A DNA stretch of 11,609 bases from a virus (lineage: Duplodnaviria; Heunggongvirae; Uroviricota; Caudoviricetes): IMG/VR virus record IMGVR_UViG_2802429218_000006, positions 1 to 11,609 of that record, one strand, 5' to 3'. The position numbers and the translations under genes were made by a program. This document shows positions 1 through 11,609 of this stretch, one piece after another (position 1 is the first letter of the stretch; each line of letters starts with the position of its first letter). Below the pieces are notes generated by a model. The model worked only from the letters and a program-made list of their open reading frames with translations. It made no database searches and had not been told where the DNA came from.

Positions 1-12
1 GATCTTCCGCCA
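1..12 (+). tRNA. selC: 3'-terminal fragment of tRNA-Sec gene (selC): acceptor 3' strand, discriminator and CCA; also the attL core. The gene body lies upstream of the window
   Basis: GATCTTCCGCCA matches the 3' end of E. coli selC as I recall it (..GGTTCGACTCCTGTGATCTTCCGCCA). The upstream part of that sequence is duplicated at the window end. Confidence 0.55.
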
Positions 13-123
13 AACAGCATCCAGCCAGTTCCGAGATACTCCATAAAACCCTTTATATTCAATACGATGAATAATCGGTTTGTCCGTAATAGTCCGAGAT
101 AATCTCCCTGAATCCGCGAAAAA

Positions 124-143
124 TATGTATAGTAATGTGTATA
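124..143. promoter_or_regulatory. Candidate integrase arm-type binding sites (tandem TATGTATA / ATGTGTATA) in the int promoter region
   Basis: The same tandem motif pair recurs at 11517-11536 on the other side of the att core. An inverted copy (TTATACAC, 167-174) overlaps the int start codon. Confidence 0.4.
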
Positions 144-174
144 GATTTTTTATACGTAGTTTTCAGTTATACAC

Positions 175-1362
175 ATGGCTCTAACCGATATACAGATCAA
201 ACGTGCAAAACCACAAGACAAACCATACACATTGAACGATGGACAAGGTCTGTCATTGCTTATCAATCCCGATGGCTCGAAAGGCTGGCGTTTCCGTTTC
301 CGGTTTGCAGGGAAAGCGCGGTTAATGTCATTTGGCAGCTACGATTTAGTAAGCCTTGCAGAAGCACGTGAGAAGCGTGACGTCGCCCGTAAGCAGGTTG
401 CGAATGGCATTGATCCTGTAGAGGAACGCAAAGCTTCAAGACTCGCTCAAAAGCTATCAACAGAAAATTCTTTCGAAGCCATATGTCGAGAATGGCATAC
501 CAACAGAGCTGACCGCTGGACAGTGGCCTATCGAGAAGAAATCATTAAGACATTCGAGCAAGATGTGTTCCCGTTCATTGGTAAACGCCCTATCAGTGAA
601 ATCAAACCATTGGAACTGCTTGAGGTATTGCGACGAATAGAGAAGCGTGGCGCATTAGAGAAGACAAGAAAAGTACGTCAAAGATGCGGTGAGGTATTTC
701 GTTATGCAATCGTAACTGGCCGAGCTGATTACAATCCAGCACCTGATTTAGCTATCGCGCTGGCCGTACCCAAGCAAAAACATTATCCGTTCTTATCCGC
801 AGAAGAGTTACCTCATTTTATTCGAGATCTGGAGGCATATACCGGCAGTATCATTACTAAAAATGCTACAAAGATAGTTATGCTAACTGGTGTTCGAACA
901 AAAGAGATGCGCTTTGCTACATGGGATGAGATTGACCTTGAGAAGGGGATATGGGAAATCCCAGCCGAAAGGATGAAAATGCGCAGACCTCACATAGTGC
1001 CGCTTTCTACTCAGGTAATCGACCTTTTCAAGCAACTCAAGCCGATTACTGGTCACTACCCTTATATTTTTATTGGCAGGAACAACCGTAGTAAACCGAT
1101 CTCAAAAGAAAGTGTGTCACAGGTAATTGAGTTACTAGGTTACAAAGGACGTGCTACCGGTCACGGTTTTAGACATACAATGTCGACAATTTTACATGAA
1201 CAGGGATTTGATAGTGCTTGGATTGAAATTCAGTTAGCCCATGTAGATAAAAATAGTATTCGAGGTACTTATAATCATGCTCAATATCTTGATAATCGGA
1301 GAAATATGATGCAGTGGTATGCGCAGCATATATATGGAAAAGTTATACAAGAGTCTAAATAA
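175..1362 (+). CDS. int: P4-family tyrosine integrase
   Basis: 395-aa ORF with an N-terminal arm-binding-like region, then a catalytic core showing box I Arg (LTGVRTKE), HGFRH (His-x-x-Arg) and a C-terminal Tyr (IRGTYNHAQY). Sits immediately next to the selC-derived att core. Confidence 0.9.
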   Translation: MALTDIQIKRAKPQDKPYTLNDGQGLSLLINPDGSKGWRFRFRFAGKARLMSFGSYDLVSLAEAREKRDVARKQVANGIDPVEERKASRLAQKLSTENSFEAICREWHTNRADRWTVAYREEIIKTFEQDVFPFIGKRPISEIKPLELLEVLRRIEKRGALEKTRKVRQRCGEVFRYAIVTGRADYNPAPDLAIALAVPKQKHYPFLSAEELPHFIRDLEAYTGSIITKNATKIVMLTGVRTKEMRFATWDEIDLEKGIWEIPAERMKMRRPHIVPLSTQVIDLFKQLKPITGHYPYIFIGRNNRSKPISKESVSQVIELLGYKGRATGHGFRHTMSTILHEQGFDSAWIEIQLAHVDKNSIRGTYNHAQYLDNRRNMMQWYAQHIYGKVIQESK

Positions 1363-1402
1363 ATTACTCATGAAGAAATATAGTCAATTATTAGGATGAA
1401 AT

Positions 1403-3058
1403 ATGATTAGTGCAAAAAACATTCTTTTCAGCAGTCGACATACTGATGCTGATGTAACTTTACATATCAATAATGTTATAAGATACCCCAAAAAATATAT
1501 GAATAATCATATCTATATATTAGATATAGACATGTATATTCAGACTGAAGACATGAAAAATCAAGCATATATAGATAATGACATTAGAAGCCCCCTGAAA
1601 ATGCTATTTATTGGAGAGGAACTAACAGAGTCAACTTTATTTGACTTATTATCCCAATCAGAAATATCGCTTCATGAAGTTAAGGTTAAATATGAATTTG
1701 ATTATATCTGTCAGATGTCAGAAGATGGATATAGATACATCAACAATAAATTAGAAACAGTCGCTTCATTATCTTTACTTAGAGCTATTAAGGATTTTGG
1801 TGTAAACTACAATATTATAAGAAACAAATCCTTTCTAAAAAAATATTCAGACAAGATATTCTCTACGTTATTACTAGATAACACTTTCAGTTCTTATGCC
1901 TTTGAAAATGGCTATAAATATTTTAATGTCGATGATGGTGCCGTTTACCAATTACAGCCCCCAACAAAATTTATTATTTATGACGAAGAAAAACAGCCGT
2001 ATAAACTTAAGATGGAGAGTCTGTTAAATATTAATATACCTATTCATGCACTAATTGGTAAGAATGGTAGCGGGAAAACCTATTTAATTAATAAAATAAT
2101 CAAACAATCTATTTCAACTGACCTAGAAATAAGATCTTCTGGCGCAGTTTTTAGTCGAATGATAGTTTTATCAAATACAATAAATGATAAGTGCTATAGA
2201 CCGGCAAATATAACCAAAAACAAATTCAAGTTAAATAACTATCATTTTGTATCGTTAACATCAGAAAAATATTATAATAAGCTTTTCCCACGAGGGAAAA
2301 AGCTAACTCTATTTTCTTTATTAGAAAAAATACAGAAACGAGATTCTAATAAGCGAGGTAACTTTGAACAGGGGGATTTGCTTGATAGAGTTACTCAAGA
2401 TATTATTCCCGAGTTTTCTTTTTCCATTAAAACAAATCTTGGGGAGCATATTTACAATAGTTTTTTAGAGTTAACTAGACAATATGGATTAGTTAATTTA
2501 AACTCAAACTTAGACTTAATTACGAGTTCAGAAATCGAATATGCATTACCTGATGAAGATATCCATTTCTATAAAAATAATGAACCCTTTACCTTAAGCT
2601 CAGGGCAATTATCTTTTTTAGTTAGCATGTTTTCTCTAATCTCAACAATAGAGAGTAATAGTCTTATACTTATAGAGGAACCAGAAAATTTTTTACACCC
2701 AAGTTTATTAACACATTTTATAAACTCACTAACACACATTCTAAGAGATACTAATTCTATCGCAATTATGGCCACCCACTCTGCTTTGGTACTTAGAGAA
2801 ATCCCTTCAGCACAAATAACAATCCTACATAGAAGAGACAATATCACCAACTATAAAACACCGAATATTGAAACATTTGGTGCCGATACTCATCAAATAA
2901 TGATAGACGTTTTTGGTGATTTATACTCTAATGCGATATTTAGAGAAGAGCTATCAAACATTGCAAAAAACAAAACAATCGATGAATTATTAGTGCAGTA
3001 TGGTGATTTACCTTCTGATGTATTAAATAAAATCATCATGGAGAAAAATTCAAAGTGA
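1403..3058 (+). CDS. ABC-type (SMC-head-like) ATPase with a ~200-aa N-terminal extension of unknown function; first gene of the candidate defence cassette
   Basis: Walker A GKNGSGKT (aa 219-226, nt 2057-2080); ABC signature LSSGQ (aa 398-402); Walker B LILIEEPENFLHP (aa 421-433, nt 2663-); H-loop ATHS (aa 457-460). Shine-Dalgarno AGGA lies 7 nt upstream of the ATG. Strongly AT-rich codon usage unlike the backbone. Confidence 0.85.
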   Translation: MISAKNILFSSRHTDADVTLHINNVIRYPKKYMNNHIYILDIDMYIQTEDMKNQAYIDNDIRSPLKMLFIGEELTESTLFDLLSQSEISLHEVKVKYEFDYICQMSEDGYRYINNKLETVASLSLLRAIKDFGVNYNIIRNKSFLKKYSDKIFSTLLLDNTFSSYAFENGYKYFNVDDGAVYQLQPPTKFIIYDEEKQPYKLKMESLLNINIPIHALIGKNGSGKTYLINKIIKQSISTDLEIRSSGAVFSRMIVLSNTINDKCYRPANITKNKFKLNNYHFVSLTSEKYYNKLFPRGKKLTLFSLLEKIQKRDSNKRGNFEQGDLLDRVTQDIIPEFSFSIKTNLGEHIYNSFLELTRQYGLVNLNSNLDLITSSEIEYALPDEDIHFYKNNEPFTLSSGQLSFLVSMFSLISTIESNSLILIEEPENFLHPSLLTHFINSLTHILRDTNSIAIMATHSALVLREIPSAQITILHRRDNITNYKTPNIETFGADTHQIMIDVFGDLYSNAIFREELSNIAKNKTIDELLVQYGDLPSDVLNKIIMEKNSK

Positions 3059-3954
3059 GAATTTTATCTAAGCCAGAGGGTATTGATGATCTACTTAATA
3101 ATATAGATCTTAACTCATCTATTGATGCCTTTTTATCGCTCGATGAACCGACTGGAATTGCTGACTTAAGAAATAAAAAAAATGATCTCTTGAACGAAAT
3201 TGAGAATTATCACACTGAGATGATTGAACGAGGTCATTTATCACATAACACGAGAAAAAACTTCTCAAAATATAAATCCATACTTGAGTGGATTTATTAT
3301 CACCCAAGTCAGCGAAGAAAAACAGACTACATAAACTCGATACGAAAACTTTACGCCCAAAGTGGAACTCTATGTCCTTACTGTGGGGTTTCTCCTTGCA
3401 GGACATTAGACCATTACTACAACAAAGCTTTATTACCACAGTTTTCATTTCTTCCTGAAAACCTTATTCCGTGCTGTGGTGATTGTAATAGAGACAAGGG
3501 AGCAAAAAAAGCCTTTAGCAAATGGAGAAGATTTGTCAATCCATTCTATGATGATTTCTCATCGTTAGAAAAAAATGAACCTCTCATATATATAATTTTC
3601 AAAGAAAGACCAAGATCTAGAATTGACATGGAATATGTAATGACAGCCAATCATAATCTAGACTTTTTAATAAGAAAACAAATAAACTATCACATTAGAA
3701 CAGTAAGAATCCCTTTCTATCATCATGAAGCCATAAGCAATTCATTTTGGAGAAACGCGAAAGACCTAATAAAGTTTAAAAAATTAGTCACTGACGGTGA
3801 TATAGATAATACAATTTATGATAAAATCATTGATGGTTTCATAGGCAAAAACAATGCTATGAATTATGACTGGGAATATATTATTAGATATTCATTAGTC
3901 AAACTTCGTATTAATCACTGGATTTATAACAGCAACCTACCAAAATTAATGTAG
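3055..3954 (+). CDS. HNH endonuclease-domain protein; second gene of the candidate defence cassette
   Basis: Zinc-finger HNH core CPYCG..LDHYY..N..CCGDCNRDKG (aa 107-148, nt 3373-3498) flanked by ~100-aa N-terminal and ~150-aa C-terminal regions of unknown function. GTG start at 3055 overlaps the TGA stop of the ATPase (GTGA), indicating translational coupling. Same AT-rich composition as the ATPase gene. Confidence 0.85.
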   Translation: MRILSKPEGIDDLLNNIDLNSSIDAFLSLDEPTGIADLRNKKNDLLNEIENYHTEMIERGHLSHNTRKNFSKYKSILEWIYYHPSQRRKTDYINSIRKLYAQSGTLCPYCGVSPCRTLDHYYNKALLPQFSFLPENLIPCCGDCNRDKGAKKAFSKWRRFVNPFYDDFSSLEKNEPLIYIIFKERPRSRIDMEYVMTANHNLDFLIRKQINYHIRTVRIPFYHHEAISNSFWRNAKDLIKFKKLVTDGDIDNTIYDKIIDGFIGKNNAMNYDWEYIIRYSLVKLRINHWIYNSNLPKLM

Positions 3955-4163: not shown

Positions 4164-4264
4164 CGCCCGCTTTGCGGGGCAGTTTTAATGCAGTTTCACT
4201 GACACGCTCAGGCCGCGCCGGGAATGGCGCGGTCTGCAGAAAATGAGGCAGGAAAACGCATGCA

Positions 4265-4297
4265 AAGCCATGCACCTTATCGATGCATGGCTTTTTT
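4265..4297 (+). terminator. Rho-independent terminator-like hairpin (10-bp perfect stem plus T6) between cos and psu
   Basis: AAGCCATGCA (4265-4274), 9-nt loop, TGCATGGCTT (4284-4293), then a T-run to 4297. The T-tail is on the plus strand, so it would stop transcripts coming from the cargo or cos side. Confidence 0.55.
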
Positions 4298-4327
4298 CAG
4301 TAAAATCGGACGGATTTTCGGGGAGTT

Positions 4328-4900
4328 TTACACAGACTGACATGATGCCAGTTGCGCACTTTTACGCGAAAAAATCATGTTCTGCGCAGGGGTGAATTTT
4401 TCACGGCTGTCATCCACCGAAGCCGCGTCAGGCCTGAATCCGATGGTCGTTAAAATGTCGCTATCCTGTGCGGAATAATTAATTTTTTCACCCTTTGCAA
4501 GCCAGGACAGAAGGGCTTCACGCAGGGCATCTGTGGCACGCTGTATGGCACAGTTTCGGGCAATGGCCGTCAGCTCACTGTAGCCCATCAGCTCCGGTGC
4601 CAGTGCCGCCGCCAGTGCTGTGCCGTGCTGCTGCATAAAATCATTCAGCCGGTCGCGGATGCTGATGTGCTGAACGGCTTCATGCGAACGAATATAACGA
4701 CCGGCGGCCTGATTCACCTGCCATTTTCTGACTTCGATAATATTGCGTAATTCGTCCAGGCGACTGACGTTTCTGCCTTCCCCGGACAGAAGCCGCAGAT
4801 ATTCCTGTTCGGCCGCAGCCAGCTCATTTTTGCGTTGCAGCCATGCTGCTTTGTTATTCTGACAGGTGTCAAAGGCCTGCTGTAAGGCTGTGCTTTCCAT
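4328..4900 (-). CDS. psu: Polarity suppression protein Psu (capsid decoration / Rho antagonist)
   Basis: 190-aa ORF, the same length as P4 Psu, in the P4 position as last gene of the sid-delta-psu operon next to cos. N-terminus MESTALQQAFDT... matches my recollection of P4 Psu. Confidence 0.85.
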   Translation of the reverse strand: MESTALQQAFDTCQNNKAAWLQRKNELAAAEQEYLRLLSGEGRNVSRLDELRNIIEVRKWQVNQAAGRYIRSHEAVQHISIRDRLNDFMQQHGTALAAALAPELMGYSELTAIARNCAIQRATDALREALLSWLAKGEKINYSAQDSDILTTIGFRPDAASVDDSREKFTPAQNMIFSRKSAQLASCQSV

Positions 4901-4973
4901 CGTTATCTCTTTCTCATCATGCTGAAGAATAAAAATACGGTGTGCGGCGACGGCCGGTGTTAACCGGCAGCCC

Positions 4974-5474
4974 TCATTCCAGACGCAGCGAATATGATTG
5001 TGTTTTTAAGCGTACTGGCGGCAGTTCCTGTTTTTCATGCAGGCTTTCTGCCAGTTCGTCCGGCGTGACCGGGCGGACAATGAAACGGTTGATGGTCTGA
5101 AGCGTTTTAAACACCAGACCACAGCCCGGATCCGTGCACACATAAAAACGCTCGGTGACTTCCTGAGACAGACGCCGCGATGTTCTTGACAGTGCAAGGC
5201 CTTTACATCTCCGACAACAATATCCGGTAACAAGCATTCTTTTCGGGCGTTTCATGCTACCGGAGGCTGACGTCAGTGAATCGCGGTATCTCTGTTTGCC
5301 TGAAATGTATTCCATTCCTGAATCTTTACAGTCAGAGAAAAAGCTTTCACTCGCTTCAAATGTCGCAGAGCAATAAATATTCCGGCACTGTGCAATCATT
5401 ATCTTGGTGCCATCGTCCATGAAATGTGCGCGACGGGTGTGAGCAACATGTCCACACGACGGGCAGTAAATCAT
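4974..5474 (-). CDS. delta: Delta, a tandem Ogr-type zinc-finger late transcription activator
   Basis: 166 aa (the P4 Delta length). The N-terminal half follows the P2 Ogr pattern (CPSCGH.AH.R..DGTK...C.N..CSATF) and a second Cys4 module sits in the C-terminal half (CCRRC...CTDPGCG). Its start overlaps the sid stop (ATGA). Confidence 0.9.
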   Translation of the reverse strand: MIYCPSCGHVAHTRRAHFMDDGTKIMIAQCRNIYCSATFEASESFFSDCKDSGMEYISGKQRYRDSLTSASGSMKRPKRMLVTGYCCRRCKGLALSRTSRRLSQEVTERFYVCTDPGCGLVFKTLQTINRFIVRPVTPDELAESLHEKQELPPVRLKTQSYSLRLE

Positions 5475-6205
5475 GACAGCAGTCCTCTGGCCTTAAGCTC
5501 TGCTCCCTGCTGGTCTATTTTGTCCTGCCACACCTTGCGCTGTGCCGGTGTGCCTGCCACCTCATAATCCATGTGCGGGAGTGTTGCCGCTGACAGTCCG
5601 GTCAGCCGGAGAACCGGCTCGCCGGTGAGGCTGATTTGCATCTGTTTAATTTTCTGTTCCAGCGATGATTTCACCTGCTGCATGACAGCCTTTTCCGGTG
5701 CGACGTAGCCCTGATGGCCGGTGGTGTTGGCGAGCGGATTTTCCTGTACCAGTATGCTCAGATGCATTGCCCGGACAAGCGCCTCACAGGTTTCATTCAG
5801 GGCGTGTTCCAGCTCATTCTCTGCATACAGACTCAGAAGGTGATGATGTGCCTTCCGGTAGGCGGTGGCCGTGCTGTCACACGCCCCTTTCAGGCGTTCA
5901 CGTTCAAAATTCAGCACCACGGCCAGATTGTCATATTCCTGTACCAGCTCCCGGCGTGCCACGCGCTCAATGTGGCGCTGTTTCAGCTCGTCGCTCAGGA
6001 CACCACCGGCTGCACGAAAGGCCGTGCGCCAGTCGTCAGCGTCGTTTCCGTCGGCCTGCGCCAGCGCATTTTTTTCCTGCTCTGCCCGTTCAATGGCCGT
6101 GACGGTCTCATCCATCAGGCGGGCGTTCTCAAGATGGGCGGCTCTGGCCTTTTCCAGTTGTGCCAGCGCGGGTTGCAGATATTCAGGGATGGTGTTGTCA
6201 GACAT
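5471..6205 (-). CDS. sid: Sid external scaffold / capsid size-determination protein
   Basis: The ATG at 6205 with a GAGGAG Shine-Dalgarno gives 244 aa, the P4 Sid length. The ORF track extends to a GTG at 6223 (250 aa), which I consider less likely. First gene of the late operon. Confidence 0.8.
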   Translation of the reverse strand: MSDNTIPEYLQPALAQLEKARAAHLENARLMDETVTAIERAEQEKNALAQADGNDADDWRTAFRAAGGVLSDELKQRHIERVARRELVQEYDNLAVVLNFERERLKGACDSTATAYRKAHHHLLSLYAENELEHALNETCEALVRAMHLSILVQENPLANTTGHQGYVAPEKAVMQQVKSSLEQKIKQMQISLTGEPVLRLTGLSAATLPHMDYEVAGTPAQRKVWQDKIDQQGAELKARGLLS

Positions 6206-6239
6206 TTTCCGGCTCCTCGTCACTTCAGGTTAAGAAAAT

Positions 6240-6295
6240 TGTGACGTACACCGGACAACAACACGACGCATTGCAGATGTGCCAGCCCTGACACA
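6240..6295. promoter_or_regulatory. Late-promoter region with two TGT-N12-ACA dyads: candidate Delta/Ogr binding sites for the divergent Psid and PLL promoters
   Basis: TGT(6240-6242)-N12-ACA(6255-6257) and TGT(6278-6280)-N12-ACA(6293-6295). The second is centred about 55 bp upstream of a plausible sid transcription start near 6230. The motif is short, so chance occurrence is possible. Confidence 0.4.
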
Positions 6296-6374
6296 GGAGA
6301 CTCATCCTCAGACCGGCAAGCCAGGAAAAGGTCGCAGGAAAAACCGGCTTACTGTTTGTTTTTTTATGTTTTAC

Positions 6375-6478
6375 TGTTCACCTCTGTTCACCATAAGAAA
6401 AAAGATAAGTAATACAGTAAGTTAAAGGGTGAGCAATCGCAGTAATGACTGTTCACCGTCTGTTCACCACTGTTCACC
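6375..6478. repeat. ori-like iteron cluster: five copies of the TGTTCACC octamer (type I iterons, alpha-binding), followed by an AT-rich stretch (6479-6570)
   Basis: TGTTCACC at 6375-6382, 6385-6392, 6450-6457, 6461-6468 and 6471-6478. The same octamer is reiterated in crr downstream of alpha, about 4.8 kb away. Confidence 0.75.
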
Positions 6479-6756
6479 CGTTCATGGACTTTTTGTGCTG
6501 TGTATTACTTTTTATTTTTATTAATTAACTGAAATAAATAAGAAAAAACAATTTGTATTTCACTATAATTTTTTCCAGCTCCTTCCAGAGCGTTTTAAAG
6601 CTATCTGGCGCTGATGTGCAAAAAACACACAGCAATTGTAAGGCTGCCGGAACAAATCCCCCCTGTTGCGTCTGCTGAAAATATTCACAAAATAAAGCGC
6701 TACCCGAAGCCGGACGGACTTATCCGGTGCTGTATGGACATTAACGAGGTAGCCCG

Positions 6757-7023
6757 ATGCAAGCTGTTTTTTCTTCCCCGTCTCCTGCCCCTGTGACGCC
6801 ACTGATGCCGCTGCCGGACATCACGCAGGAGCGTTTTTTACGTCTGCCGGAAGTGATGCACCTGTGCGGCCTGTCACGCTCGACCATCTACGAACTCATC
6901 CGTAAGGGGGAATTTCCGCCGCAGGTGAGTCTTGGCGGTAAAAATGTGGCCTGGCTGCACTCTGAAGTCACCGCATGGATGGCCGGGCGCATTGCCGGAC
7001 GCAAACGGGGGTACGACGCATGA
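6757..7023 (+). CDS. vis: Vis / AlpA-family helix-turn-helix regulator (excision and late-gene control)
   Basis: 88 aa (the size of P4 orf88/vis) with an AlpA-like HTH segment ([28 protein letters not shown]). GAGG Shine-Dalgarno 8 nt upstream. First gene of the plus-strand left operon. Confidence 0.75.
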
Positions 7024-7574
7024 TGATGCCTGTTCTGCAAAAACTCCCTTTTTCTGGCTTGCCTTTTTCCGGCATTTGCGGATATAGTTTTTCCGCTGTC
7101 GCAAAATCGGCAGCCGGGCGTAGGAACCCGAGTTACTTCAAGGCGACATATGACGCGCCATGCGTCTTTTTTTACGTCGTTGCTTCGGCACACCTGTTTT
7201 TCTGGCTGTGGTTTTTAAACCGTAGCCTCTGTCAGATAATGGTGGTCCGGGCGGGGCAGCCTTCGGGCTGGCCGGTTTCCTTGAAGGCCGGTATTCCTAC
7301 CCCCGTCCGGGCTACCACCCATGAGCGTAGGAACTCCAGTGGTAGCTGTAACTGTTACTTCAAGGAGGCTGCCATCATGGCTACAACCCTTACCCCCTCA
7401 CACCCTGAATTTGTCTTTGTGTTTGCGGCTGTCCGTCGCGCAGACCGTCATCCCCGTATCTGCATGCTTCGCACCGTCGCCGGTGATGAACGCAGCGCCC
7501 GCCGTTCCCTTGTCCGTGACTATGTGCTCTCCCTTGCTGCCCGTCTGCCGGTGGTGGAGGTGTCCCGTGCGTAA
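6975..7574 (+). CDS. Possible eta-like ORF (199 codons) that reads through the immunity-RNA region, with the kil-like ORF nested in the same frame
   Basis: A 600-nt open frame starting inside vis, upstream of the PLE-like promoter, and spanning the structured RNA region. Consistent with the nested kil/eta arrangement described for P4, but the protein is low-complexity and could be an artefact of GC-rich sequence. Confidence 0.3.
7059..7088 (+). promoter_or_regulatory. Candidate sigma-70 promoter (PLE-like) driving the immunity / left operon
   Basis: TTGCCT (7059-7064), 18-bp spacer, TATAGT (7083-7088), about 30 bp upstream of seqA. Confidence 0.45.
7118..7143 (+). promoter_or_regulatory. seqA-like target site for the immunity RNA
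   Basis: GCGTAGGAAC..TTACTTCAAGG. The two blocks are complementary to CCTTGAAG (7279-7286) and TTCCTAC (7294-7300) inside the structured RNA. Confidence 0.55.
7241..7320 (+). ncRNA. cI: CI-like immunity RNA (P4-type antisense RNA carrying seqB); boundaries approximate
   Basis: Highly structured segment: GGTGGTCCGGGCGGGG pairs with CCCCGTCCGGGCTACCACC (one G-T wobble and a 3-nt bulge), plus an internal CAGCC-TTCG-GGCTG hairpin. The internal seqB blocks are complementary to both flanking seqA and seqC. Confidence 0.5.
7325..7365 (+). promoter_or_regulatory. seqC-like target site overlapping the ribosome-binding site of the kil-like ORF
   Basis: GCGTAGGAAC (7325-7334) and TTACTTCAAGG (7355-7365) repeat the two seqA blocks. 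The second block runs straight into the AGGAGG Shine-Dalgarno of the ORF starting at 7377. Confidence 0.55.
7377..7574 (+). CDS. Small kil-like protein (65 aa); resembles the Ash/Icd-like small proteins of P4-type prophages
   Basis: Strong AGGAGG Shine-Dalgarno 8 nt upstream of the ATG. First ORF after the immunity RNA. Sequence [25 protein letters not shown]... Confidence 0.55.
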
Positions 7575-7854
7575 TAAAAAAGCCCCTCAGACCGTCTCAG
7601 CGCGTCATGACGCCCGTGAACACCTCAGCATTGAGGCTTACCATAAGCTCAACCGCGCCAGCGCCGTATCCCAGTTTGTTGGGGGTGATTTGATTCACCG
7701 TGAACTCTCCGGCCTGCATCAGCTCTACATTCCGCATATTTTCAGTTACCTGAATGAAGATATTGATTTTGTGCTGAATGAACTGAAAGCCAAAGGCCTG
7801 TGCCGCGATTTTCTCGCCCAGCAGAAAGACCGGGGAGACAGGACGCATGTTTGA
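7567..7854 (+). CDS. Epsilon-sized small protein (95 aa) with a GTG start; position and size match P4 epsilon, the derepression protein
   Basis: No in-frame ATG exists. The GTG at 7567 is preceded by GGAGG at 6-nt spacing and overlaps the stop of the kil-like ORF. Product length is exactly 95 aa. Identification is by synteny and size only. Confidence 0.45.
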
Positions 7855-8308
7855 TTTTCCCCAGCCCGGTGAGATTTACCGTTCTGCCGGTTTTCCCGAT
7901 GTGGCCGTGGTCGGCATTCTGGAAGACGGTATTCCGTGGGAAATGCCGTACCGCTGCCCGGACATTGTCTGGAACCCGTACCGCCGTAAATTCAGTATCC
8001 TTGTGCGTATCCTCGCTGACGGGCGCACCACAGACATCCCGCTGGGGCGTTTTCTGCGGGAATTTACCTGTGACCGTCCTGACCTGTTCAAACGCAGCCC
8101 CGTAAACCGGCATGCGGTACTGAAAGAAATGGCCGGAGACCCGGAATTACAGAAATGGCGGGAGAAATATCTGGATATTTACCCGCAGGACCCTGTTCCG
8201 GTCAGCCGGGCGGCACCGGTGGCGCGGGAATGGCGGGAAATTCCCCGCACGGAGCCTGACCCGGCCCCCCCCCCCCGGATAACAGTTACCGCAATTATCT
8301 GTAATTAA
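7847..8308 (+). CDS. Hypothetical protein, orf151-like by position (153 aa); contains a C12 homopolymer near its 3' end
   Basis: ATG overlaps the stop of the preceding ORF (ATGTTTGA). The C12 run at 8265-8276 encodes the PAPPP segment of the product. Confidence 0.6.
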
Positions 8309-8439
8309 AAAACGACACCCGAAAAATTAAATGTGCGTATTCGCGCAGGGATACGCACGTCTTCAGGAGACGCAGATATGTCTTATCAGTTAATGCAACC
8401 GGCACGGAATGCAGTCATCTGTCACAGGGAGGAAAGCAA

Positions 8440-8760
8440 ATGAAAACACCCTTACCGCCCGTCTTACGCGCTGCCCTTTACCGTCGCGCTGTCGCCTGTG
8501 CCTGGCTGACCGTGTGCGAACGTCAGCACCGCTACCCGCATCTCACCCTTGAGTCACTGGAGGCGGCCATCGCCGCTGAGCTGGAAGGCTTTTATCTGCG
8601 CCAGCACGGTGAGGAAAAAGGGCGCCAGATAGCCTGTGCCCTGCTGGAAGATTTAATGGAATCCGGCCCCCTGAAGGCCGCGCCGTCGCTGTCCTTTCTC
8701 GGGCTGGTTGTGATGGATGAACTCTGTGCCCGTCACATAAAAGCGCCGGTACTGCACTGA
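8440..8760 (+). CDS. cnr: cnr-sized protein (106 aa); copy-number-control candidate
   Basis: GGGAGG Shine-Dalgarno. 106 aa equals P4 cnr (orf106), and it lies immediately upstream of alpha as in P4. Identification is by synteny and size only. Confidence 0.5.
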
Positions 8761-8774
8761 AGGAGAACAACACC

Positions 8775-11108
8775 ATGAAAATGAACGTAACCGCCACCGT
8801 CAGCCATGCGCTCGGCCACTGGCCGCGTATTCTCCCGGCGCTGGGGATTCAGGTGCTGAAAAACCGTCATCAGCCCTGTCCGGTCTGTGGCGGGAGTGAC
8901 CGCTTCCGTTTTGATGACAGGGAGGGGCGCGGCACCTGGTACTGCAATCAGTGTGGTGCCGGTGACGGCCTGAAACTGGTTGAAAAGGTGTTTGGTGTTT
9001 CCCCGTCCGACGCGGCCGCAAAGGTGGCTGCCGTGACCGGCAGTCTGCCACCGGCTGACCCGGCAGTGACGGCTGCCGCCGGTGCTGAAACAGACGCTGC
9101 CCGGAAGAACGCCGCCGCACTGGCACAAACCCTGATGGCGAAAACCTGTCCCGGAACCGGTAACGCCTACCTGACCCGCAAGGGCTTTCCCGGCCGGGAA
9201 TGCCGGATGCTGACCGGCACACACAGAGCCGGTGGCGTGAGCTGGCGCGCCGGTGACCTTGTGGTGCCACTGTATGACGACAGCGGCGAACTGGTTAACC
9301 TTCAGTTAATCAGTGCTGACGGCCGTAAGCGCACCCTGAAAGGCGGACAGGTCAGGGGCACCTGTCACACCTTTGAAGGACAGAATCAGGCCGGAAAACG
9401 TCTGTGGATAGCGGAGGGATACGCGACCGCACTTACCGTGCATCACCTGACCGGTGAAACGGTGATGGTGGCGCTTTCTTCCGTGAATCTCCTTTCTCTG
9501 GCCAGCCTTGCCCGGCAGAAGCATCCGGCCTGTCAGATTGTCCTTGCCGCAGACCGTGACCTCAGCGGTGACGGCCAGAAAAAAGCCGCCGCAGCCGCAG
9601 ATGCGTGTGAAGGTGTTGTTGCCCTGCCGCCGGTCTTCGGTGACTGGAATGATGCCTTCACGCAGTACGGCGGGGAAGCCACCCGTAAGGCCATTTATGA
9701 TGCCATCCGGCCACCGGCTGAAAGCCCGTTCGACACCATGAGCGAAGCGGAGTTTTCCGCCATGAGTACCAGCGAAAAGGCCATGCGTATCTATGAGCAT
9801 TACGGCGAGGCGCTCGCGGTCGATGCCAACGGCCAGCTTCTGTCCCGTTATGAAAATGGTGTCTGGAAGGTGCTGCCACCACAGGACTTTGCCCGGGATG
9901 TGGCCGGGCTGTTTCAGCGGCTGCGTGCGCCGTTCTCCTCCGGGAAGGTGGCCTCCGTGGTGGACACCCTGAAGCTGATTATTCCGCAGCAGGAAGCCCC
10001 CTCCCGCCGCCTGATTGGCTTTCGTAACGGCGTGCTCGACACGCAGAACGGCACGTTCCACCCGCACAGTCCGTCACACTGGATGCGCACCCTGTGCGAT
10101 GTGGATTTCACCCCGCCGGTGGAAGGGGAAACGCTGGAAACCCACGCCCCCGCGTTCTGGCGCTGGCTTGACCGTGCCGCCGGTGGCCGTGCGGAAAAAC
10201 GCGACGTGATTCTGGCCGCACTGTTTATGGTGCTGGCAAACCGCTACGACTGGCAGCTCTTTCTGGAGGTGACCGGTCCCGGCGGCAGCGGCAAAAGTAT
10301 CATGGCCGAAATAGCCACCCTGCTGGCCGGGGAGGATAACGCCACGTCGGCCACCATCGAGACGCTGGAATCCCCGCGTGAACGTGCCGCGTTAACTGGC
10401 TTCTCACTGATACGCCTGCCGGACCAGGAAAAATGGAGCGGCGACGGTGCCGGACTCAAGGCCATCACCGGCGGCGATGCGGTGTCCGTTGACCCGAAAT
10501 ACCGGGATGCATACTCCACGCATATCCCGGCGGTAATTCTGGCCGTGAACAATAACCCGATGCGCTTCACCGACCGCAGCGGCGGCGTGTCACGCCGGCG
10601 GGTGATTATTCACTTCCCGGAACAGATAGCCCCGCAGGAGCGCGACCCGCAGCTTAAGGACAAAATCACCCGCGAGCTGGCGGTCATCGTGCGTCACCTG
10701 ATGCAGAAGTTCAGCGACCCGATGCTCGCCCGGTCACTGCTTCAGTCCCAGCAGAACTCAGACGAGGCACTGAACATCAAACGGGATGCCGACCCGACGT
10801 TTGATTTTATCGGCTATCTGGAAACCCTGCCGCAGACCAGCGGCATGTATATGGGGAACGCCAGTATCATCCCGCGTAATTACCGTAAATACCTCTATCA
10901 CGCCTATCTGGCCTACATGGAGGCAAACGGCTACCGGAATGTACTCAGTCTGAAAATGTTCGGGCTGGGGCTGCCGGTGATGCTGAAGGAATACGGACTG
11001 AATTACGAGAAGCGCCATACCAAACAGGGGATACAGACCAACCTGACGCTGAAAGAGGAAAGCTACGGCGACTGGCTGCCAAAATGTGACGACCCTGCAA
11101 CAACCTGA
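8775..11108 (+). CDS. alpha: Alpha primase-helicase replication protein
   Basis: 777 aa (the P4 alpha length). N-terminal zinc-ribbon primase motif CPVCGGSDRFRFDD..WYCNQCG, a TOPRIM-like region, and a C-terminal helicase Walker A GPGGSGKS. AGGAG Shine-Dalgarno upstream. Confidence 0.92.
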   Translation: MKMNVTATVSHALGHWPRILPALGIQVLKNRHQPCPVCGGSDRFRFDDREGRGTWYCNQCGAGDGLKLVEKVFGVSPSDAAAKVAAVTGSLPPADPAVTAAAGAETDAARKNAAALAQTLMAKTCPGTGNAYLTRKGFPGRECRMLTGTHRAGGVSWRAGDLVVPLYDDSGELVNLQLISADGRKRTLKGGQVRGTCHTFEGQNQAGKRLWIAEGYATALTVHHLTGETVMVALSSVNLLSLASLARQKHPACQIVLAADRDLSGDGQKKAAAAADACEGVVALPPVFGDWNDAFTQYGGEATRKAIYDAIRPPAESPFDTMSEAEFSAMSTSEKAMRIYEHYGEALAVDANGQLLSRYENGVWKVLPPQDFARDVAGLFQRLRAPFSSGKVASVVDTLKLIIPQQEAPSRRLIGFRNGVLDTQNGTFHPHSPSHWMRTLCDVDFTPPVEGETLETHAPAFWRWLDRAAGGRAEKRDVILAALFMVLANRYDWQLFLEVTGPGGSGKSIMAEIATLLAGEDNATSATIETLESPRERAALTGFSLIRLPDQEKWSGDGAGLKAITGGDAVSVDPKYRDAYSTHIPAVILAVNNNPMRFTDRSGGVSRRRVIIHFPEQIAPQERDPQLKDKITRELAVIVRHLMQKFSDPMLARSLLQSQQNSDEALNIKRDADPTFDFIGYLETLPQTSGMYMGNASIIPRNYRKYLYHAYLAYMEANGYRNVLSLKMFGLGLPVMLKEYGLNYEKRHTKQGIQTNLTLKEESYGDWLPKCDDPATT

Positions 11109-11124
11109 CCATCATGACTCATCT

Positions 11125-11149
11125 GACCGGCATCTGCCGGTCTTTTTTT
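11125..11149 (+). terminator. Rho-independent terminator downstream of alpha
   Basis: GACCGGC (11125-11131), loop ATCT, GCCGGTC (11136-11142), then T7 (11143-11149): a perfect 7-bp stem. Confidence 0.8.
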
Positions 11150-11166
11150 ATCCCTGAATTCCCCGA

Positions 11167-11468
11167 AGGTGAACAATCCACTGTTCACCCTTCACCGTAT
11201 ATTCACTCGTTATCACACTGAAATTAAAAGAGAAAAACGAAAGGTGAACAGTGTGAACAATCAAATCAAAAAAAACTTTTTTTCTCCCTGTGTGATTTCA
11301 GTACGGGGGATTAATCACCGGTATGAGTCACACCGGCAGAATGCCGGAGGTGAAGAATCGAATGTTCACCCTTCACCCATTATTCACTACCTATCATACT
11401 GAAATAAAAGGAGAAAAAAGAAAGGTGAACAGTGTGAACAGTTCTTTCGAAAAAAAATTTTTTTCCTG
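11167..11468. repeat. crr (cis replication region): two ~121-bp direct repeats (11167-11287 and 11348-11468, period 181 bp), each carrying TGTTCACC / GGTGAACA iterons and ending in an A8/T8 tract
   Basis: The repeats align along their whole length with a few substitutions. Iterons at 11168-11175, 11182-11189 and 11243-11250, plus the equivalent positions in the second copy. Confidence 0.8.
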
Positions 11469-11516
11469 AGTTAACGTGCGTGAAGATACGTGTAAAAATT
11501 AATCGATAGATATTAT

Positions 11517-11536
11517 ATGTATAAGGATGTGTATAA
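11517..11536. promoter_or_regulatory. Candidate integrase arm-type binding sites (ATGTATAA / ATGTGTATAA) on the attR side
   Basis: Same tandem motif pair as at 124-143 on the attL/int side. Confidence 0.4.
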
Positions 11537-11593
11537 ATGAATTATAATAGAAAAATATAAACGATTTGAATCAAATGGTTATATGGCAATTTT

Positions 11594-11609
11594 GACTCCT
11601 GTGATCTTC
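11594..11609. repeat. attR core: direct repeat of the selC 3' end (GACTCCTGTGATCTTC, truncated by the window edge)
   Basis: Matches the selC segment immediately 5' of the bases at window positions 1-12. The T at 11593 where selC has C marks the edge of identity. Confidence 0.6.

Follow-up and report, generated by a model that had tools for sequence, protein, structure and literature searches.

The TGTATA boxes on both sides of the attachment (att) core of this element are very probably arm-type binding sites of its own integrase. The window, which is the whole stretch of 11,609 nucleotides that we have analyzed, is a P4-like satellite prophage inserted in the 3' end of selC, the gene for tRNA-Sec. 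Its boxes are an ordinary case of the known P4-family arm-site design, in a selC/TGTGTATA variant. A preliminary description of this DNA had already read the boxes as integrase sites, and we arrive at the same prediction. It is suggested by the layout, which is that of P4 and KplE1, by the presence of boxes in both arms, by the co-variation of the boxes with the N-terminal domain of the integrase (Int) and by the arm-binding domain found in this protein. From these features we infer that Int actually binds the TGTATA boxes in this element.

The element and its insertion site

The gene set of the window is that of a P4-like satellite, a type which is recognized by alpha primase, crr, cI, epsilon, vis, sid, delta, psu and cos and by an int gene at one of its ends. 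Positions 4164-11463, which represent 62% of the window, are 97% identical to P4 (X51522). This part includes the replication and late genes and covers psu, delta, sid, vis, cI, epsilon, alpha, ori and crr. The parts which do not correspond to P4 are the left 4.1 kb and the last 146 bp, which hold the integrase, a two-gene defence cargo and the selC-type att site. Judged from its sequence, the integrase and att module is of a selC-specific type, unlike that of P4. Related E. coli loci have the same gene annotation as the window.

The annotation of selC comes from an E. coli chromosome which is 99.9% identical over window positions 1-1400. The annotated tRNA-Sec stops at window position 12 (NZ_AP025214), and the first 12 bases of the window, GATCTTCCGCCA, are the 3' end of this tRNA. 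The preceding part of this end is found again in the last 16 bases of the window, GACTCCTGTGATCTTC. Since both the first 12 and the last 16 bases belong to the end of tRNA-Sec, the window is one integrated-element unit, whose ends lie within attL and attR. When these two ends are joined, the result is the attP of the excised form, and the same core is found both before and after related elements. A tRNA scan of the window found none, because merely 12 nt of selC lie inside it.

Modules which match attL and int, with 60-100% identity, are present in 515 of 5426 complete E. coli genomes. O157:H7 strains are found among these carriers, and in them the element adjoins the LEE. The selC-proximal element next to the LEE is not the same in two O157:H7 strains. 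Strain 7.1_Anguil (L163) has a complete P4-like satellite with int and att of the window type. On the other hand, in EDL933 (L164) this place is taken by a remnant of CP-933L, which contains a GGGGGT-type int together with IS elements and a CbtA toxin module.

The cargo of the window lies at 1403-3954, between int and psu, and consists of genes coding for an AAA ATPase (551 aa) and an HNH endonuclease (299 aa). This pair matches the PADLOC candidate system PDC-M01A/B and, more weakly, Septu PtuA/PtuB. It is a defence system in the known int-psu hotspot of P4. In the O157 strain 7.1_Anguil, the same position is occupied by a DEAD-box helicase pair.

Two loci have more than one site of this kind. 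Both L001 and L113 contain a second partial selC core after the P4-like element, with GGGGGT-type direct repeats before it. This second attR-like site is found about 1.4 kb beyond the TGTATA-type attR. They seem to be what remains of two types of selC element which were in tandem and differed in their arm boxes.

Arm-type repeats in the window

The features of the att region, together with the genes int and vis, are shown in Table 1. Two tandem pairs of boxes had been noticed in the preliminary description. The left pair is found where it had been placed, at 124-143, with TATGTATA at 124-131 and ATGTGTATA at 135-143. The right pair also exists, but the coordinates given for it (11517-11536) were one base too far to the right: TATGTATA occupies 11516-11523 and ATGTGTATA 11527-11535. 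An inverted copy had been described across the int ATG, and it is indeed there. It is a perfect 9-mer in the minus strand, at 168-176 (TATACACAT in the plus strand), which takes in the A and the T of the start codon (175-177). A fourth copy in the P' arm, which is degenerate, had been missed: It is TATACGTA, at 151-158.

Table 1. Features of the att region, int and vis in the window.
Feature	Position	Strand	Remarks
attL core remnant, GATCTTCCGCCA + AA	1..14	+	Right part of the 23-bp core GACTCCTGTGATCTTCCGCCAAA
First TCC(G/A) block	28..51	+	GTTCCG 28-33, CTCCA 39-43; candidate sites for Vis or an accessory factor
Second block, four (R)TC(C/T)(G/C) boxes	82..116	+	GTCCG 82-86, GTCCG 92-96, ATCTC 102-106, ATCCG 112-116; exact 10-bp period; candidate Vis boxes abutting a -35-like hexamer
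Candidate int promoter, weak, sigma-70-like	108..136	+	CTGAAT, 17-nt spacer, AGTAAT; lenient scan, 7/12; -10 on the P'1/P'2 junction
P'1 arm-type repeat, ATATGTATAGTA	123..134	+	First of two direct repeats 12 bp apart; TGTATAGT invariant in 30 selC-type relatives
P'2 arm-type repeat, ATGTGTATAGAT	135..146	+	Exact 9-mer; GTATA invariant in relatives
P'3 degenerate inverted copy	149..160	-	Plus strand TTATACGTAG; TATACACA in most relatives; least conserved of the four
P'4 inverted arm-type repeat	165..176	-	Plus strand AGTTATACACAT; final two bases are A and T of the int start codon
int, tyrosine integrase	175..1362	+	395 aa; N-terminal arm-DNA-binding domain
vis, AlpA-family excisionase and late regulator	6757..7023	+	87/88 identical to P4 Vis
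P1 arm-type repeat, ATATGTATAAGG	11515..11526	+	Begins 79 nt before the core
P2 arm-type repeat, ATGTGTATAAAT	11527..11538	+	Exact 9-mer
Perfect IHF consensus, AATCAAATGGTTA	11569..11581	+	Between the P-arm repeats and the core; regular expression WATCARNNNNTTR; consensus match only
attR core, left part, GACTCCTGTGATCTTC	11594..11609	+	Continues CGCCAAA in related loci

The left and right tandem 20-mers are identical at 17 of 20 positions, and the start-to-start period is 12 bp in both. There are near-copies 12 bp upstream of both direct ATGTGTATA copies. This 9-mer occurs exactly three times in the window, each time within about 170 bp of the att core. In 200 dinucleotide-preserving shuffles only 0.04 +/- 0.21 copies are expected, so it is enriched about 75-fold, and three copies were found in none of these 200 shuffles. 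When up to one mismatch is allowed, ATGTRTATA gives 16 matches versus 4.4 +/- 2.3 expected.

P1 and P2 (11515-11538) are found 79 nt before the core and P'1 to P'4 (123-176) 108 nt after it. Thus a short repeated motif flanks the core on both sides and lies outside it, within the range of about 60-120 bp used to recognize arm sites.

Other one-mismatch copies of the box, ATCTGTATA and ATGTGTATG, are present at 189-197 and 224-232 (minus), inside the first 20 codons of int. Coding constraint confounds a conservation test of these near-copies. P4 too has an annotated arm repeat inside int.

The Pfam domains found in the window Int are Arm-DNA-bind_3 (PF13356, residues 3-87, E = 5e-27), Phage_int_M and Phage_integrase. 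Residues 1-89 match the solved arm-binding domains PDB 3JU0 and 3JTZ. The best PDB match of the protein is the solved central domain of IntS.

Conservation in related elements

We have fetched 160 loci, each of them coding for a relative of the window Int. IMG/VR contigs were used for the attR comparisons, as the 10-kb flanks of the genome loci fell short of attR. The selC-type relatives provided 30 distinct attL sequences, from E. coli, Serratia, Kluyvera, Phytobacter, Mangrovibacter, Yersinia and IMG/VR metagenomic viral contigs. In all of them we find TGTATAGT in P'1, GTATA in P'2 and TATACACATG, which corresponds to P'4 and the start codon, while P'3 and the spacers vary. At the other end of the element, in P2, the distance between ATGTGTATAGnnATGTGTATAA and the core is constant in more than 20 distinct attR flanks, whose sequences cannot otherwise be aligned.

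The arrangement of the boxes is also found outside the selC type. Of 89 non-redundant homologue loci, 70 have a pair of direct 7-mers, with a spacing of 12 bp in nearly all cases, and an inverted copy at most 10 nt from the start codon, versus 2.4% of shuffled controls.

The sequence of the boxes changes with the integrase. The thrW-type integrases, which are about 60% identical throughout, keep TGTGTATA, and the boxes of the argU type and P4 are GGGGGTA or GGGGGCA. The IntL integrase of EDL933 is an example in which the selC core is the same. It is 76% identical to the window Int over residues 91-386 and 54% identical over residues 1-90, and GGGGGT-type repeats are found in both attL and attR of EDL933, at the positions of the window boxes. 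The comparison with P4 is also informative: Vis is 99% identical (87/88), Int just 39%. Since Vis is near-identical, while Int is divergent and the boxes are different, the boxes follow Int and not Vis. In short, the repeats are constant when Int is the same, change with its arm-binding domain and are independent of Vis.

A different kind of variation is found in the attL of Yersinia (L006-L009), about 35-15 nt before int. P'2 and P'3 have changed together, to GGGTATAG and CTATACCC, and P'1 and P'4 keep TGTATAG and CTATACA. The changes are mirrored and preserve the inner palindrome. Gene conversion, a DNA or RNA hairpin, or a relaxed specificity outside the GTATAG core are possibilities which might account for this.

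Other parts of the att site

The related attR flanks have an A/T-rich block, either AATAAAAACA or AATAAATACA, in the position of the IHF site.

The two blocks of TCCG boxes are found between the core and the P'-arm repeats. They are kept between the P' arms of P4 and the window, although the arm repeats differ, and the columns of the second block are invariant in relatives. They resemble the sites of TorI, the KplE1 excisionase (GTTCG, GATCG and GTCCG), which also form two blocks at the same place. The TorI sites I3-I5 are next to the -35, and the 82-116 block of the window is placed likewise. From this analysis, the TCCG boxes at 28-51 and 82-116 are likely to be Vis sites for excision.

The complete attP would have the order P1-P2, IHF-like site, 23-bp core, two blocks of candidate excisionase boxes, P'1-P'2, the degenerate P'3 and P'4. 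In the mechanism that we propose, the N-terminal Arm-DNA-bind_3 domain of Int would bind P1-P2 and P'1-P'4, and the C-terminal domains would hold the core. The intasome would be built with IHF, which at 11569-11581 would bend the P arm, and Vis would be added for excision. P'1 and P'2 would cover the -10 and the start region of the candidate int promoter, which is weak, and P'3 and P'4 would lie in the leader, so that bound Int would lower int transcription too.

Expression of int

The int gene is in the same strand as tRNA-Sec and starts at position 175, after an intergenic region of 162 bp, and attL overlaps its upstream region. A strict sigma-70 scan of window positions 1-400 found no promoter, and the candidate shown in Table 1 comes from a lenient scan. 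At the homologous position, P4 has TTGAAA-18-CATAAT, which scores 9.5/12 versus 7/12 in the window. The window candidate is also weaker than the KplE1 promoter, TTGACA-17-GTAAAA, which has a consensus -35 and a mapped start site. In 11100-11609, scanning revealed just a minus-strand match and the alpha terminator, and no promoter from the P arm towards int such as that of ICEKp1.

Several relatives of this integrase repress their own gene. IntS represses its own promoter about 5-fold (PMC2951348), self-repression by IntL of EDL933 is 4-fold (PMC2951348, PMC7286903), and that of IntI from PAI I536 has been shown by experiment (PMC2951348, PMC7286903). Self-repression by P4 Int appears in these papers as a cited result (PMC2951348, PMC7286903). 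Int supplied in trans also lowers the expression of an int reporter in the case of IntF and IntC. The homologues with tested self-repression carry boxes other than those of the window: GGGGGT in 536 and EDL933, GGGGGCAT in P4 and GGGTAAA in KplE1. We have considered the IntL experiment of EDL933 as direct evidence for the window and rejected it, since both int and the box type of EDL933 differ: It is a precedent only. On balance, our analysis suggests that the window int is probably repressed by bound Int.

In KplE1, single mutations in P'2, P'3 or P'4 left repression intact (PMC2951348), so the box on the ATG may matter little for regulation. There is also a case with no obvious promoter to repress. 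In ICEKp1, int is 161 bp downstream of a tRNA gene and the promoter activity of its 5' flank is negligible (PMC13023037). This int is read from the tRNA promoter when the element is integrated, and from a promoter at the 3' end when it is excised (PMC13023037). Given that the ICEKp1 flank has no promoter activity, repression of an int promoter may be the wrong picture for the window. Bound Int might act as a roadblock to read-through transcription, not as a classical repressor.

The preliminary description stated that the int ATG lacks a Shine-Dalgarno sequence. This is correct: AGGA, GGAG, GAGG, GGA and GAG are all absent from the 25 nt before the ATG, and a purine-rich Shine-Dalgarno match is present in none of the selC-type relatives. 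Other subfamilies have GGAG or GGGAG before int. We have found no evidence for the additional translational control which had been suggested from this. Its only basis was the missing Shine-Dalgarno, and folding gives no supporting RNA structure. The missing Shine-Dalgarno is no evidence for specific translational control, because the leader is simply AU-rich.

Alternative explanations

The boxes might act as RNA: A stem-loop formed by the direct and inverted copies, either in the leader of int or in a transcript which reads through from selC into int, would attenuate transcription or hide the start codon. There is a precedent for this, as stem-loops in the 161-bp int 5' flank of ICEKp1 reduce the tRNA-driven read-through of int (PMC13023037). 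The joint change of copies 2 and 3 in Yersinia, from TGTGTATA/TATACACA to GGGTATAG/CTATACCC, also keeps the palindrome, and the copy-3 variants ACGTA, ACGCA and ACATA still permit G-U pairs with copy 2. However, since such an RNA has only U and G in its 5' arm, pairing survives by chance whatever transition occurs in the 3' arm. The fold of window positions 100-200 is no better than that of shuffled sequences (-13.0 vs -13.7 +/- 2.8 kcal/mol, z = +0.24). RNAalifold gives -3.5 kcal/mol for the 30 relatives, with a covariation term of -0.18 and a single pair with a double change. Moreover, an RNA structure accounts neither for the direct pair in the P arm, which is about 11.4 kb off in the prophage and has no inverted partner, nor for the way in which the boxes change with the N-terminal domain of Int. 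With such a z value and almost no covariation, we have rejected an RNA hairpin or attenuator as the main explanation, and consider it quite unlikely. A minor role of RNA is possible, in view of the paired change in Yersinia and the copy-3 variants compatible with G-U pairs.

It is also conceivable that the boxes are sites for the excisionase Vis, a recombination directionality factor, and not for Int. The Vis of P4 binds two boxes between the core and int, as Cali reportedly found in 2004. Direct repeats about one helical turn apart are described as typical sites of recombination directionality factors (PMC7498355). But the Vis of the window is 87/88 identical to that of P4, which has GGGGGCAT at the box positions, and Vis sites are not expected at a matching position in the P arm. 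The TCCG boxes, which have a 10-bp period, are conserved in P4 and look like TorI sites, are a better candidate for Vis, and we find it highly improbable that the TGTATA boxes have this function. The remaining explanation is that they are promoter -10 elements, an AT-rich bending sequence or sites for host factors, whose repetition is a by-product of low complexity. In fact, TATAGT (128-133) fits the -10 consensus at 5 of 6 positions, the box region is AT-rich and the P arm has a perfect IHF consensus. Such an origin hardly agrees with an exact 9-mer about 75-fold above dinucleotide-preserving shuffles, or with a P-arm pair which is conserved inside flanks that cannot be aligned. Relatives with G-rich boxes (GGGGGTA, GGGGGCA) have an identical layout, so AT-richness is not the conserved property. 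We give this explanation very little credit.

Significance of the arm boxes

The reading of the boxes as arm-type Int sites provides a sequence-level att map for a satellite family which is common in E. coli, with P1-P2, an IHF-like site, the core, the candidate Vis boxes and P'1-P'4. Such a map helps to annotate the ends of islands and to design assays of excision or integration, and it is also of use for integrase-based tools. It leaves the current view of site-specific recombination as it is. Mildly new are only the TGTGTATA box class and a clear case of arm boxes and N-terminal domain which change together on an unchanged core specificity.

A broader reading may be proposed, which is tentative and which we regard as rather doubtful. 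In integrases which compete for the same selC core, the N-terminal domain and the boxes would have diverged as a matched pair, with TGTGTATA in the P4-like satellite and GGGGGT in the LEE / PAI I536 island type. The arm code would be an orthogonality device, and the box on the start codon would be family-wide and selected. If this were true, an orthogonal arm code would let two elements share one tRNA gene in tandem, with no mutual excision or repression. The box on the int start codon, found in 70 of 89 loci from several phyla, would then be a selected feature of the family and not a peculiarity of P4.

Comparison with known systems

The arm-type sites of lambda Int are P1, P2 and P'1-P'3. 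Lambda and the window share the same principle, a bivalent integrase which connects arm and core sites with the aid of IHF and an excisionase. On the other hand, lambda Int has an arm-binding domain of a different family, and its sites are not the same in number or orientation. To our knowledge, transcription of lambda int does not pass through attL, and for this reason its arm sites do not provide self-repression.

IntL (EDL933) and IntI (PAI I536) use the same selC core as the window and have direct repeats at the same places in both arms. Their catalytic and core-binding part is 76% identical to that of the window Int and the N-terminal domain 54%, and their boxes are of the GGGGGT type. 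PAI I536 has been placed in this type judging from primer MC124 (AGGGGTGTATTGGGGTATCA). The int gene of EDL933 has a good Shine-Dalgarno, and its inverted copy is found about 35 nt before the ATG: The window differs in both features.

The arm sequence repeats of phage P4 attP were reportedly described by Pierson and Kahn in 1987. The P4 record (NC_001609) contains six annotated 12-bp "attP arm sequence repeats", with the motif TTGGGGGCAT. Two of them are in tandem 77 nt to the left of the core, and another two in tandem 112 nt to the right. Of the remaining two, one is an inverted copy which covers the int start, and the other is found inside int. This layout is like that of the window: Both have tandem pairs 77-79 nt to the left and 108-112 nt to the right, as well as an inverted copy which covers the start of int. 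Between arm repeats and core, the TCCG blocks of the two are homologous. The differences are the box itself (ATGTGTATAG in the window, TTGGGGGCAT in P4, with GGGGGCAT at the box positions), the target (selC in the window, leuX in P4) and the degenerate inverted copy P'3, an extra feature of the window.

The annotated start of P4 int is an ATG inside the inverted arm repeat ATGTGCCCCCAAATG (L162, 3912-3926, int strand). A second in-frame ATG, four codons later, aligns with the N-terminus of the family (MKLNARQVETAKPKDK in P4, MALTDIQIKRAKPQDK in the window). This would fit the two alternative start codons which have reportedly been described for P4 int.

KplE1 (CPS-53) is also similar to the window. 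It has two direct and two inverted arm boxes, with P'3 inverted at the same place and the last box abutting the ATG. The boxes in its attL are, in order, GGGTAAAAAG, TGGATAAAAT, TTTTACCC and TTTTTACCCATG. The tRNA and int have the same orientation, with about 160 bp between them, and the excisionase boxes (GTTCG/GTCCG) are found upstream, in two blocks close to the -35. The identity between IntS and the window Int is 48%. For IntS, the arm sites P'1-P'4 have been defined and mutated, P'1 overlaps the -10, and attL contains the TorI sites I1-I5 (Panis et al. 2010, PMC2951348). Unlike the window, KplE1 has the box GGGTAAAA (GGGTAAA), and it is a lambdoid or Sf6-like defective prophage found at argW, with TorI as excisionase instead of Vis. 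In summary, the number, spacing and orientation of the window repeats match those of P4 and KplE1, with 12-bp tandem pairs in both arms and inverted copies which end at the int start.
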